NCBI GenBank assembly: GCA_964518475.1
Contig: CAZFGR010000001.1
Location: 128,001-192,000, forward strand
Direction: 5' to 3'
DNA from: an uncultured Nitrososphaerota archaeon
GTDB lineage: Archaea; Asgardarchaeota; Njordarchaeia; Njordarchaeales; Njordarchaeaceae
Length of the DNA: 64,000 nucleotides
Shown here: in pieces, positions 1 through 6,361 of the stretch
How positions within the stretch are numbered: position 1 is the stretch's first letter
Layout: every line of letters begins with the position of its first letter
The notes under the pieces: generated by a model
What the model saw: only the letters and a program-made list of their open reading frames with translations
Database searches by the model: none
What the model was told of the DNA's origin: nothing
Made by a program: the position numbers and the translations under genes

Positions 1-368
1 ACAATTCCCTTAACAACCCAGGGCTGAAAAACAGCTATAGACGCTATTGTGAATTCAATATCATCTCGCCACCTAGCTACCACGGGGTAAGGATCCAAAA
101 CAGCGTGTCCTCTCTCAGCAAAAAAGCCCGTCCATTTCCGTATGGTGTTGTGAATATCCCACTCCCTAGACCAAGTGTTGTCTTCGATAAATCTATATTC
201 TCCTTCACATTCAACGTCTCCACAAGTTTCTCGATCCGGATTTAATGTCCAGAAAAACCTTCCACAAACCTTACACTGTTTGCGCACGAATCCCATTTCT
301 TTAAAGAATTCAGTCTCATATTCTTCCTTACCAAATAGTTTGAATAATTCCTCTTTACTAATGCTCAT
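1..368 (-). CDS. alaS: Alanyl-tRNA synthetase, archaeal type (N-terminal part; runs off the window start)
   Basis: Manual translation from ATG 368: MSISKEELFKLFGKEEYETEFFKEMGFVRKQCKVCGRFFWT...TCGD...YPVVARWRDDIEFTIASIAVFQPWVVKG, the archaeal AlaRS N-terminal signature. Not in the ORF track. Confidence 0.93.
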   Translation of the reverse strand, partial: MSISKEELFKLFGKEEYETEFFKEMGFVRKQCKVCGRFFWTLNPDRETCGDVECEGEYRFIEDNTWSREWDIHNTIRKWTGFFAERGHAVLDPYPVVARWRDDIEFTIASIAVFQPWVVKGI

Positions 369-509
369 TGTACCGCCCCAGTCATATATAAGGCTACTCA
401 ATTATATACGTCTCAACTAAAGCTACAGTCTAAAATAATAATAGATGGAGGAAGACGAAAGCTTTTTTAATGATGATGGAAGAGATAGATATACCTTTTA
501 TGGTAAGAT

Positions 510-584
510 GGACGGGTAGCTCAGTGGTAGAGCGCCGGCTTCGCAAGCCGGAGGCCGCGGGTTCGAATCCCGCCCCGTCCACCA
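510..584 (+). tRNA. tRNA-Ala(CGC), CCA encoded, no intron; acceptor pair 3:70 is A:U
   Basis: Cloverleaf GGACGGG-TA-GCTC/GAGC-CCGGC-TT CGC AA-GCCGG-AGGCC-GCGGG TTCGAAT CCCGC-CCCGTCC-A-CCA. Confidence 0.97.
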
Positions 585-2299: not shown

Positions 2300-5200
2300 A
2301 TGTACTTCGAAATACCAAAGAAACTAGCGAGTATTAGATTCGGGATAATGTCTCCAGAAGAGATTAGGAAATTAGCTGTAGTGAGAATAGACCAGTCCAC
2401 TTTATATGATGATGAGGGCAGAGGATTCCCAGGAAGTCCTCTGGATAGAAGGCTGGGTTCTCCAGATAATAGAGAAAGATGCGAATATTGTGGGCTTAGA
2501 AGGCGTGAAGGGGAAACTGGTTGTATAGGTCATTTCGGTTATATTTCTCTTGCAATGCCTGTCTATCATCTCGGATTTGTTAAATACATAGAAAAGGTTT
2601 TAAATGCTATTTGTGAAAGGTGTGGCCGCCTTACTTTACCTCCAGAAAAGCGCGAAAAATATTGGGCTAAAATGAAAGAATTCATTGATCGGTATGGATA
2701 TCCTAGTCCAGAAATAGCGAAAGAGGTACTTAATGAGGCTATAAAGGAAAAGAAATGTTATAACCTTAATTGTGGTCATGAAAAAGTTGGAAAATTTATT
2801 TGGTCAAAAGAATATCTCACATTTATCAAGCGAATCGAAATACCTCCAGAAAAACTTGAGGAAATCAAAAAATCAGAGAAAAGCAGTTTAAGCGCTTACT
2901 TAATTGGTAGGCGAAGGCCTCGTATCGTTAAAGGTCGTGGCAATAAGTATTATGAAAACCAATACTTAACAGCTCAACAAATAAAGCAAATTCTCGAGAC
3001 CATTTATGATCCTAAAGAGGATTACTCCCCAGAAGAAAGAGAAGAACGCAGAAAAGACGTCTTCTTATTAGGTTTCCACCCAGATTATGCTCTTCCTCAA
3101 TGGACTATTCTCCAAGACCTCCCTGTACCTCCCATAACAGTTCGTCCACCAGTTGTGACGGCTGATGGTAAACGATCCGAGGATCACTTAACTATAACGC
3201 TTCGAGACATTGTAAGAATAAATGAACAACTAAAAAACAAACTACGTGGGGGCCCATCCCCTGTCATAGAATCTAACTGGCAAAAACTTCAAAAACTTGT
3301 CATGGTTTTGTTTGGACTTCACAAAGTTGGTGAAATTAAGCTTGAAAGCTTGTATGTTAAGGGTATTGTGCACAGACTGTCTGGTAAGGAGGGTAGATTC
3401 AGACATAATCTGAGTGGAAAAAGAGTTGATTTCTCTGGCAGAGCTGTTATATCTCCGGATCCATACTTAAGTGTTGATGAAATCGGTGTGCCAGAAAAAA
3501 TGGCACGAGTTCTTATAGTGCCTGAAGTAGTTAATGAGCTGAATATCGAGAGACTAAGACAGCTCGTTATAAATGGCCCGGATAATTATCCAGGAGCTGT
3601 ATTCATATGGCAAAAACGAGGAGAAATGTATCATAAAATATCCTTAGAAGTCTTCAAAGGTGTTGAGGAACGGAAAGCCAAAGCTCTTGAATTAAAGCCT
3701 GGGGATATCGTAGAGCGACATTTAATGGATGGGGACATAGTAGTCTTCAATAGGCAACCCACACTTCATAGAATTTCCATGATGGGGCATTATGTACGTG
3801 TACTGCCTTACAATACACTCCGTCTTCACTTACATTCCTGCCCTCCATATAATGCAGACTTTGATGGAGATGAAATGAATATTCACTTGCCAAGATCTCT
3901 TGAGACGCGCGCAGAGATATCAACAATAATGGAAGTGAAAAGACATATCATTACTCCAAGATACGGGGGCCCAATAATTGGTCCCAAGCAAGACTATATT
4001 ACTGGGGCCTACCTCCTTACGAAGGATGATACCCTATTATCGCTCGAAGAAGCCGTTCAAATTTTATTCTATGCTGGTATTACATCATTACCCGAGCCAA
4101 CAACCGTTATTGGTAGAGAGCCTTATTGGAGCGGAAAAGATCTTTTCTCTCAGATCATTCCACGGTATATCTTTTATGAAAAAGACGTAAAAGGCGCTTT
4201 GTGTGGTAAGAAAGGCTCAGAGAAATGCAAAGTTAAAATATGGGATGGTAAAATCCTCGAAGGCGTTATAGATAAGAACGCTATAGGTGCTGAAAAACCA
4301 GAAAACCTTGTTCAGAGAATCATTGATAGGTGGGGATACGAAGCTGGTAAGAAATTCCTGAATAGTATGGGTGCAATGATTATTCGGTATCTAACTGATA
4401 GAGGTTTTAGCTTGACATTATGGGATATAAAATTACCAGCTGAAACTAGAGAAAAAATCAGAAAGGTACTGGCAGAGTACATAGAGAAGGCGAATAATCT
4501 AGTAAGACAATATCTTGAAGGAAAACTTGAACCAGACCCAGGAAAAACTCTTGAAGATACATTCGAGGACAAACTAGTCGAAATCCTAGATGAGGCGAGA
4601 ACGAAAGCTGGGGAGATAGTAATGGAATCAATGCCTATGGATAGCCAATTCTTAGCAATGACTGTAACGGGCGCGAGAGGAGATGAGACCAATATTCAGC
4701 AAGTACTAGCATGTATTGGCCAGCCAGTGGTTAGAGGGAAACGATTAAGAAGAGGTTATGACCAGCGTACTTTGCCTCATTTCAAGAAGGGGGACGTAGG
4801 TCCTTATGCCGGTGGTTTCACGATAAACAGTTTCTCATCTGGCATGTCACCTATCGAGTATTTCTTCCATAATGCTGGTGGAAGAGATAGTCTTGTCGAT
4901 ACTGCGGTTAGAACAGCTGATAGTGGATACTTCTATCGACGATTAGTCAATGCTTTGCAGGATAGTAGAATAGAATATGATGGTACAGCGAGAATGATGA
5001 GTGGTCATATAGTTCAGTTCAGATACGGTGGAGATGGCATTCATCCAGGAAAAAGCTTCCATGGCAAGCTTACAGATTACGAATCATTGTTCTACGAAAT
5101 AATTGTACGTAGAGAAGATAATGGTAAGAAAGTTAAAACTTCTAGGAAGACTTGGCCGAAGTATTATGATGAAGTGATAGAAGAAATCACTGAGAAAACT

Positions 5201-6361
5201 TCTAAAGCTATCGCTGAAGATATAAGAAAAATATTCAAAGACATGTTGAAGAAAGGTTATGTGCTATCCGAAGAAGAAGTAAAAGAATACAAGGAGAAAA
5301 TACTCGAAAAGTATCTACAAGCGCAAATAGATCCAGGCGAAGCGGCTGGAACGGTAGCTGCTCAATCTGTAAGCGAGCCAGCGACGCAATTAACTCTCCG
5401 TACATTCCACTGGGCCGGCGTAGCAGCCTTTAGCATTACAACGGGTCTACCAAGGCTGAAAGAGATTTTTGATGCTGTGGAGAGGCCTAGTACTCCGATG
5501 ATTTCCGTGTACCTAGAGAGTGATTACAAACGAAGTAAGAAGAAAGCCGAGGAAATCTTCAGCTACATACGAGCAGTCACTATCTTGCATCTAATTAAAC
5601 AAGATGGGCTTCAAATAGAGCCTGGAGAAAACAGAATAAAAGTTGTTTTGAGCAGGGAAAGACTCCGCCACTATAATTTAACCCCAGAGATCGTTAAAGA
5701 GAAAATTGAGAAAATCGGAAAAGTCCGAGTTGAGCACCCAAGCAGTTATATATTATATATCTACCCAGCAGACACTGATGTAAGCTTAACTGAGATCTAT
5801 CGAAAACTCCGCGAAAAAGTCTTCAAAGGTTTCAAGGAATATGAGCGAGCACAGCTTAGGAAATCAGATGAATTCGATGAATATTATATTGTAATAGCAG
5901 GATCCGATATTACACCCCTACTGTACGTGAAAGGCGTTGACGTGTCTAGGCTAGAAACAAACAACATCCACATGTTCGCAAAGATTTTCGGTATTGAGGC
6001 TGCTCGAAGATTAATTGCAAAAGAAGCTAAGAACGTCCTTGATCAGTATGGTCTTGACGTGGACATGCGTCACATTCTCTACATAACTGATGTCATGACT
6101 ATGCATGGCCACATCGAAGCTATTGGAAGATATGGAATTGCTGGAAAGAAACTAAGTGTACTAGCCCGGGCAGCTTTTGAAGAAACCGGTAAGCATTTGT
6201 TCCGTGCTGCTGCAGCTGGTATGGTAGATCCCCTCTTAGGTGCTACAGAAAATGTCATAGTGGGAGGAGTTCCACCTTTGGGTACGGGAGTAGTAAAGCT
6301 TGGATTTTTCAAAAAACCAATTAAACAAAACCAGGCTCAGGCCACGATCTCTAACTCTTAA
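2300..6361 (+). CDS. rpoA: DNA-directed RNA polymerase largest subunit, fused A'+A''
   Basis: GHFGYI, GKRVDFSGR, YNADFDGDEMN, DTAVRTADSGY, then the A''-type GTVAAQSVSEPATQLTLRTFH and ARAAFEET in one 1353-aa ORF. Confidence 0.98.
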   Translation: MYFEIPKKLASIRFGIMSPEEIRKLAVVRIDQSTLYDDEGRGFPGSPLDRRLGSPDNRERCEYCGLRRREGETGCIGHFGYISLAMPVYHLGFVKYIEKVLNAICERCGRLTLPPEKREKYWAKMKEFIDRYGYPSPEIAKEVLNEAIKEKKCYNLNCGHEKVGKFIWSKEYLTFIKRIEIPPEKLEEIKKSEKSSLSAYLIGRRRPRIVKGRGNKYYENQYLTAQQIKQILETIYDPKEDYSPEEREERRKDVFLLGFHPDYALPQWTILQDLPVPPITVRPPVVTADGKRSEDHLTITLRDIVRINEQLKNKLRGGPSPVIESNWQKLQKLVMVLFGLHKVGEIKLESLYVKGIVHRLSGKEGRFRHNLSGKRVDFSGRAVISPDPYLSVDEIGVPEKMARVLIVPEVVNELNIERLRQLVINGPDNYPGAVFIWQKRGEMYHKISLEVFKGVEERKAKALELKPGDIVERHLMDGDIVVFNRQPTLHRISMMGHYVRVLPYNTLRLHLHSCPPYNADFDGDEMNIHLPRSLETRAEISTIMEVKRHIITPRYGGPIIGPKQDYITGAYLLTKDDTLLSLEEAVQILFYAGITSLPEPTTVIGREPYWSGKDLFSQIIPRYIFYEKDVKGALCGKKGSEKCKVKIWDGKILEGVIDKNAIGAEKPENLVQRIIDRWGYEAGKKFLNSMGAMIIRYLTDRGFSLTLWDIKLPAETREKIRKVLAEYIEKANNLVRQYLEGKLEPDPGKTLEDTFEDKLVEILDEARTKAGEIVMESMPMDSQFLAMTVTGARGDETNIQQVLACIGQPVVRGKRLRRGYDQRTLPHFKKGDVGPYAGGFTINSFSSGMSPIEYFFHNAGGRDSLVDTAVRTADSGYFYRRLVNALQDSRIEYDGTARMMSGHIVQFRYGGDGIHPGKSFHGKLTDYESLFYEIIVRREDNGKKVKTSRKTWPKYYDEVIEEITEKTSKAIAEDIRKIFKDMLKKGYVLSEEEVKEYKEKILEKYLQAQIDPGEAAGTVAAQSVSEPATQLTLRTFHWAGVAAFSITTGLPRLKEIFDAVERPSTPMISVYLESDYKRSKKKAEEIFSYIRAVTILHLIKQDGLQIEPGENRIKVVLSRERLRHYNLTPEIVKEKIEKIGKVRVEHPSSYILYIYPADTDVSLTEIYRKLREKVFKGFKEYERAQLRKSDEFDEYYIVIAGSDITPLLYVKGVDVSRLETNNIHMFAKIFGIEAARRLIAKEAKNVLDQYGLDVDMRHILYITDVMTMHGHIEAIGRYGIAGKKLSVLARAAFEETGKHLFRAAAAGMVDPLLGATENVIVGGVPPLGTGVVKLGFFKKPIKQNQAQATISNS

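Follow-up and report, generated by a model that had tools for sequence, protein, structure and literature searches.

The G3:U70 base pair of tRNA-Ala is the textbook example of the operational RNA code, and the locus described here raises the question of how, and with which amino acid, a tRNA-Ala without that pair is charged. Its gene lies in a 64,000 nucleotide stretch of DNA (the whole stretch analysed, called the window below) from a Njordarchaeales (Asgard) metagenome-assembled genome (MAG), G000. ARAGORN finds there a 75 nt, intronless tRNA-Ala(CGC) gene with an encoded CCA at positions 510..584 of the plus strand, which matches the Rfam model RF00005 with a score of 80.4 bits (E 2e-17, threshold 29) and has only standard stem pairs. 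In its acceptor stem, GGACGGG/CCCGTCC, A512:T578 is A3:U70: A3 (position 512) stands in place of the canonical G3, and U70 (position 578), its Watson-Crick partner, is scored as part of a standard pair in the Rfam alignment. The anticodon CGC (542..544) reads GCG, and the discriminator A73 (581) and the encoded CCA (582-584) together occupy 581..584. A73, G1:C72 and G2:C71 of the canonical alanine identity set are present and G3:U70 is missing, and the number of G:U pairs in the cloverleaf, read from the sequence over the whole molecule, is zero. The original prediction had described an otherwise intact tRNA with an A3:U70 stem, a CGC anticodon, A73 and CCA, all of which we read directly in the sequence, and it had named 512 as the base to be confirmed. 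That base is A, not G, in variant-free contigs (contigs, not raw reads) from two independent public runs (X1 and X2), and the GGC and UGC isoacceptors likewise have A there.

The neighbour of this gene is alaS, which had been placed 141 nt away on the opposite strand; the gap measures 369-509, and the two genes are indeed head-to-head. The window holds the 5' part of alaS, its first 122 codons (1..368, minus strand, with the ATG at 368-366), and the full gene extends over G000:C1:125618-128368 (-). The 141 nt spacer between the divergent genes (369..509) is AT-rich, and TATA-like runs seen in it by eye on both strands, at ~383-392 (alaS side) and ~464-471 (tRNA side), are putative promoters of alaS and the tRNA gene. 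The full alaS product (P0001) is a 916 aa protein with Pfam domains PF01411 and PF07973, which aligns over its full length with 3wqy_A (E 4e-199; 2zze_A also gives E < 1e-199) and has the editing-site His and Cys motifs; a Pfam search of it found no extra domain. A PF01411 search of the assembly yields no other full AlaRS, only two short editing paralogs of the AlaX type. The AlaX-like stand-alone editing-domain genes are located at G000:C4:88975-89709 and C4:~71953-73200 (ORFs of 243 and 419 aa), and AlaX-type trans-editing factors in other organisms likewise depend on G3:U70.

Is the lack of G3:U70 a property of this one gene? The G000 assembly (2.33 Mb in 121 contigs, 38% G+C) contains 45 tRNAs by ARAGORN, and its tRNA-Ala genes are GGC at C1:15330-15404, CGC in the window and UGC at C11:32757-32831. 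These three differ from one another at nt 32 and 34 only and share the stem given above with its A3:U70 pair; their near-identity suggests a recent homogenisation or an anticodon shift. The 402-kb contig with alaS and rpoA holds two of them, which therefore belong to this organism. Of the non-Ala tRNA calls of this genome, 42/42 have G:C or C:G at 3:70, A3:U70 being found in tRNA-Ala only, and the acceptor stems are otherwise nearly all G:C, the sole other A:U being A1:U72 of tRNA-Gln. No alternative tRNA-Ala with G3:U70 was found in the G000 assembly; since every genome used here is a MAG (for G000, completeness is 91% and contamination 5.8%), a G3:U70 copy may formally have escaped assembly. 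As a separate observation, more than half of the G000 tRNA genes have introns, many at non-canonical positions (for example, C1:193033-193130 and C3:45617-45742), and ARAGORN mis-assigns several G000 tRNAs, such as a 'tRNA-Asn(att)' whose acceptor stem is poor. Intron-bearing tRNA-Ala genes of relatives are miscalled as Ser or Gly (L044, L046, L048 and L020).

Such genes might be artefacts or pseudogenes, or their products might be charged with another amino acid through a reassignment of GCN or GCG codons. The AlaRS of model systems charges A3:U70 variants poorly (PMC9976931), which would fit, but we regard these explanations as scarcely credible. Independent contigs agree, the cloverleaf is perfect at 80 bits, the state recurs in three G000 genes and in 12/14 genomes of the order with compensatory A:U to U:A changes (below), and the assembly has no alternative tRNA-Ala, and GCN and GCG codons fall on conserved alanines. 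In an alignment with 21 non-Njord Asgard AlaRS, eight columns have 90% Ala or more, and G000 alaS has a GCN codon at every one of them (8/8); one GCG codon of that gene falls on a column that is Ala in 21/21 of these proteins, and 26/43 of its GCN codons are on Ala-majority columns. GCG codons on conserved Ala columns are also found in G004 and G006, whose CGC isoacceptor has U3:A70. The comparison of GCG codons with Ala columns that had been proposed as a check thus finds GCG aligned to conserved Ala, and a differently charged GCG decoder, one of the options raised originally, is rejected, as the other GCN codons are on conserved Ala columns as well. The codons that these tRNAs read do not mark positions conserved for another amino acid in G000, and there is no second dedicated synthetase. 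With GCN codons on conserved Ala columns and a single AlaRS, the tRNAs must be alanylated by P0001, either directly or after modification.

How widely is the A3:U70 state shared? The nearest public matches to the G000 alaS are from 'Candidatus Njordarchaeota archaeon B77_G9' (79% identity) and also 'B6_G17', and identity to the gene of 'Candidatus Njordarchaeum guaymaensis GB_154' is 60%. A preprint unites the Njordarchaeales and Panguiarchaeales as the thermophilic Asgard class Njordarchaeia (10.1101/2025.02.13.637844). Our sample of the order comprises 14 species genomes (G000 and 13 others) with 34 tRNA-Ala genes, in which the 3:70 pair is A:U in 25, U:A in 3 and G:U in 6 (in G005 and G009 only); G:C or C:G occurs in 0/34. 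The non-G:U state (A:U, with some U:A) is present in 12/14 of these genomes, and the possibility of a private mutation, which the original prediction had wished to see checked in the other isoacceptors and in relatives, is answered by A3:U70 in the GGC and UGC isoacceptors and in most relatives. In the genus of G000 itself (f1), G000, G002 and G003 have A:U in every gene seen, G001, G004 and G006 have A:U in the UGC/GGC and U:A in the CGC isoacceptors, and G005 has G:U in all three genes. The five f2 genomes have A:U throughout, in the stem GGAGGGG/CCCCTCC, the f3 genome G008 has A:U, and G:U is the state of all three genes in the f4 genome G009 (0.9 Mb, probably Panguiarchaeum-like). Two more metagenome contigs (L121 and L171) carry an A:U tRNA-Ala(CGC) adjoining alaS. 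A change from A:U to U:A is a double compensatory substitution, and pairing at 3:70 is thus maintained.

The gene order alaS, tRNA-Ala(CGC), two small ORFs and an unsplit rpoA is kept in Njord contigs (the window, L169 and L171). The ORFs that sit between the tRNA gene and rpoA in the window are at 704-1501 (+; 265 aa, with a multi-pass membrane look by eye) and 1498-1971 (-; 157 aa), and similar-sized ORFs are present there in L169 and L171. The unsplit RNA polymerase subunit A is encoded at 2300-6361 (+; 1353 aa, Rpb1 domains 1-5 in one ORF), and the unsplit rpoA beside alaS and tRNA-Ala in the other Njord contigs encodes 1351 aa in L169 and at least 1377 aa in L171. The tRNA-Ala gene is head-to-head with alaS in G000 and G002 only, and it is upstream of and co-directional with alaS in G001/L169, L121, L171 and G005. 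Across the lineages the syntenic tRNA-Ala(CGC) site beside alaS (L169:5801-5876, L121:1132-1229, L171:4781-4856 and G005:C39:43235-43310) is occupied by all three 3:70 states, A:U, U:A and G:U. The difference in orientation between lineages and the near-identity of the three G000 genes suggest that the CGC gene beside alaS was recently replaced or inverted. Comparison of the loci gave no sign of a regulatory role for the adjacency of alaS and tRNA-Ala.

Do these varied states mean that the 3:70 pair no longer matters? AlaRS might read A73, G1:C72, G2:C71, the elbow (via C-Ala) or even the anticodon, and leave position 3:70 to neutral drift. The occurrence of A:U, U:A and G:U all within one genus and the mixed state of some genomes would agree with this, as would the findings that the Nanoarchaeum equitans AlaRS-alpha alone charges minihelices without regard to G:U (PMC11392972) and that human mitochondrial AlaRS is G3:U70-independent (PMC6451123). 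However, some G:C should have turned up if the pair drifted neutrally in a GC-rich, thermophile-type tRNA set, and neither G:C nor C:G is found at 3:70 in any of the 34 tRNA-Ala genes of the order, whose other acceptor pairs are all G:C/C:G. In addition, G1:C72, G2:C71 and A73 are common to Val, Pro, Ile, Met, Phe and Trp tRNAs and so would be insufficient alone for specificity, and the G000 AlaRS has no extra domain. We consider such drift unlikely, and 3:70 is probably still the discriminating site.

Our wider survey searched for intronless tRNA-Ala genes with a non-G at position 3, a pattern that intron-containing genes escape. Its matches in 400 Asgard species genomes were confined to Njord f1-f3, the unrelated genome G111 and one other genome, G015, whose match has no cloverleaf and was rejected as due to chance; in Thermoproteota the pattern matched 0/401 genomes. 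The G3...U70 pattern matches 277/400 Asgard genomes, within the order G005 and G009 only. Families missed by both patterns were spot-checked (for example, the tRNA-Ala of G019 has G3:U70 and an intron), and four spot-checked genomes from other archaeal groups all have G3:U70. The three tRNA-Ala genes of G111 are at G111:C322:2905-2978, G111:C455:1054-1127 and G111:C521:1315-1390, and its AlaRS is on L168:35-2731; the GGC and CGC isoacceptors have A3:U70, and the UGC gene has G3:U70 with a different body. The G111 MAG consists of 860 contigs with 6% contamination, so the linkage between these tRNAs and this AlaRS rests on binning. G110, from the sister genus of G111, has G3:U70 and the canonical Tyr-Asp-Ser-His-Gly AlaRS loop, and the nearest named relatives of the G111 AlaRS are labelled Hod- and Heimdallarchaeota.

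If P0001 charges A3:U70 tRNAs, is it different from other AlaRS enzymes where these read the 3:70 pair? Naganuma et al. reportedly found in 2014 that an A3:U70 tRNA is a poor substrate in A. fulgidus. On the minor-groove side, Asp450 of the A. fulgidus enzyme touches the 2-amino group of G3 (PMC6055181, PMC8583063), Tyr449 + Gly453 backbone contacts the U70 ribose in the published A. fulgidus model (PMC6055181), and Asp450 substitutions lower discrimination against Watson-Crick 3:70 pairs while an N359A change makes no difference (PMC6055181). Losing the acidic residue is thus a plausible permissive step, but an insufficient one, since several Asgard lineages with G3:U70 also have no Asp/Glu at the site.

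We compared 30 Asgard AlaRS genes (19 of them outgroup), further Njord proteins and 120 wider archaeal AlaRS. In the alignment with 3wqy_A, P0001 keeps the equivalents of Asn359 (Asn360, in the PSN motif of the major-groove helix), Tyr449 and Gly453, and its Asp450 equivalent is Ile456; of the Asn and Asp residues that had been marked for inspection in the full AlaRS, the Asn is therefore kept and the Asp is an Ile. Across f1-f3 the Asp450 site is I, L or V (T in one f2-type AlaRS, P0021), compared with E7, V5, Q3, R2, T1 and D1 in the 19 Asgard outgroups and D90 and E23 (113 D/E) in the 120 wider archaeal proteins. The Ser451 site is Asn in f1 and f2, Ser in f3 and Ala in one, and Asn is found there in 0/19 outgroup and 0/120 wider archaeal AlaRS. 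The clade loop thus reads Tyr-Ile/Leu/Val-Asn-His-Gly, where Archaeoglobus has Tyr-Asp450-Ser-His-Gly. The Gly363 site, one helical turn past Asn359, is Ala, Cys or Tyr in f1-f3 and Gly in 19/19 and 116/120 of the others, and just before the Tyr-Asp-Ser-x-Gly loop f1-f3 have a two-residue insertion (444-445) that is absent from the others.

How closely do these changes follow the tRNA? G009 (G:U) has all the ancestral AlaRS states and is sister to the rest of the order in the AlaRS tree. G005 (G:U in its three genes) has the derived AlaRS type, encoded 1.1 kb from a tRNA-Ala gene, and is nested inside f1 in the tree with moderate support (SH-aLRT 89-92). The G111 AlaRS has Tyr-Thr-Asn-Tyr-Gly (Thr-Asn for Asp-Ser) and a one-residue insertion at the same place, and keeps Gly363; judged by its sequence, it is an independent replicate of the loop change with A3:U70. 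Apart from G111, essentially a single branch accounts for the AlaRS changes, which leaves roughly two independent events behind the co-variation. No single AlaRS residue was found that tracks the 3:70 state of the tRNA: Ser is retained in G008 and Gly363 in G111, and the Asp450 site has Val both together with G:U (G005, G009 and Odin-like genomes) and together with U:A/A:U (L169); a rule of 'Ile/Leu with A:U, Val with G:U' is broken by L169, in which a Val AlaRS adjoins a U3:A70 tRNA-Ala. Ile or Leu at this site was not seen with G:U among the AlaRS paired with their tRNA-Ala.

Two further sets of proteins came to light in these comparisons. P0048 and P0072 (locus L176), which are 'Asgardarchaeia' AlaRS, have Ile at the Asp450 site and keep Ser451 and Gly363. 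P0038, P0042 and P0045, labelled Njordarchaeota or Njordarchaeum guaymaensis in nr, are of a canonical-looking AlaRS type of about 894 aa, with an Asp-Ser loop and Glu at the Gly363 site; either the naming or binning is inconsistent here, or one name covers two lineages.

The AlaRS data also bear on whether the tRNAs are alanylated only after modification. A post-transcriptional change, such as A3 to inosine, might restore a wobble pair (I3:U70) that would be read conventionally. I:U does have wobble geometry, and archaeal/eukaryal AlaRS are said to select by fit more than by specific atoms (PMC6055181). However, A-to-I editing would leave the U3:A70 of G001, G004 and G006 unexplained, as a different edit giving a reversed wobble would be needed there, and the remodelled AlaRS reading loop would be needless. 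A PF02137 (ADAR/ADAT1-type) search of G000 was empty, a weak test in that control genomes are equally silent, and no TadA-like gene was found in it, its sole CDA-fold gene (PF00383) being a tetrameric cytidine deaminase that scores above the TIGR01354 cut-off. We know of no editing at acceptor-stem position 3, and we judge this explanation very improbable.

The likely explanation is, in our opinion, that f1-f3 have a lineage-wide alanine identity independent of G:U, in which the tRNAs are charged directly by a single co-evolved AlaRS; direct charging is strongly implied by the sequence data. Thus, among the three options of the original prediction, we favour the co-evolved AlaRS, consider an editing step unlikely and reject the differently charged decoder (above). 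G3:U70 has been replaced across f1-f3 by A3:U70 in all isoacceptors, and by U3:A70 in some CGC isoacceptors, and the single, otherwise ordinary archaeal-type AlaRS would charge both kinds of tRNA-Ala with alanine directly. Seen from the minor groove, A:U and U:A should be almost the same, and neither would offer the guanine 2-amino group found in G:C and C:G. The aliphatic residue and the Asn in the reading loop may accept A:U, U:A and, in some enzymes, G:U, and exclude G:C and C:G, and the Gly363 change and the two-residue insertion before the loop may also contribute to the altered 3:70 acceptance. We infer these roles of individual AlaRS residues and offer them as hypotheses. The loop hypothesis fits the mixed genomes (A:U and U:A in G001, G004 and G006, A:U and G:U in G111), in which one enzyme serves more than one 3:70 state, and it fits the total absence of G:C at 3:70 in a G:C-saturated tRNA set. 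A stronger version, which we put forward tentatively and hold to be possible rather than probable, is that the identity rule has been re-specified, such that AlaRS positively selects A:U/U:A by minor-groove readout and uses the guanine 2-amino group to reject G:C and C:G; its Ile/Leu forms might reject G:U.

The absence of G3:U70 is real and lineage-wide, and it is undescribed as far as our literature search reached (a full-text search, with subscription journals outside its scope, found no report of an archaeal tRNA-Ala without G3:U70). The Njordarchaeales seem, from their sequences, to have departed from a charging rule believed to hold everywhere except in mitochondria; the alanine identity rule would thus be open to change in cellular translation too, not only in organelles. 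The mixed A:U/U:A and A:U/G:U genomes and a sister lineage with G:U and the ancestral enzyme are natural intermediates from which the joint evolution of a synthetase and its tRNAs can be followed, and a few residues of the AlaRS reading loop are nominated as candidates. The character may cleanly separate Njordarchaeaceae-type lineages from the Panguiarchaeum-like branch, and it is a caution for tRNA annotation tools that assign the alanine isotype by G3:U70. The AlaRS/tRNA pair is possibly usable as an orthogonal system; if the identity rule were truly re-specified, nature would have found a second answer to the acceptor-stem 'second genetic code', and the orthogonal pair would come ready-made.

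How does this system compare with those already known? The Njord AlaRS belongs to the same enzyme family, with the same PF01411 + PF07973 architecture, as the canonical archaeal enzyme (A. fulgidus, 3wqy_A), and its tRNA shares A73, G1:C72, G2:C71, an NGC anticodon and a normal cloverleaf with canonical tRNA-Ala; it differs in that A3:U70 or U3:A70 replaces the defining G3:U70 and the AlaRS loop is remodelled. E. coli tRNA-Ala knockout selections have yielded active mutants without G:U at 3:70, so alanine acceptance by such tRNAs is physically possible (PMC9976931), but these are laboratory mispairs used by an unchanged enzyme, whereas the Njord pairs are natural Watson-Crick pairs that accompany a changed one. 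The split AlaRS of N. equitans is another case of archaeal AlaRS activity independent of G3:U70 (PMC11392972); there, however, it is an in-vitro side activity of isolated alpha, the holoenzyme is G3:U70-specific and the tRNA-Ala carries G3:U70 (PMC11392972), while in the Njord lineages the tRNA-Ala genes themselves are without it. Animal mitochondria are also G3:U70-independent, as in human mitochondrial AlaRS (PMC6451123) and the G2:U71 of Drosophila mitochondria (reviewed in PMC9976931), and they resemble the Njord case in having a natural tRNA-Ala without G3:U70 and a dedicated AlaRS that has diverged in its reading of the acceptor stem. The mitochondrial systems are organellar and fast-evolving, with degenerate tRNAs and often a translocated G:U (G5:U68 or G2:U71); the Njord system, in contrast, is that of a free-living, or at any rate cellular, organism with GC-rich canonical tRNAs, no G:U anywhere and order-wide conservation.
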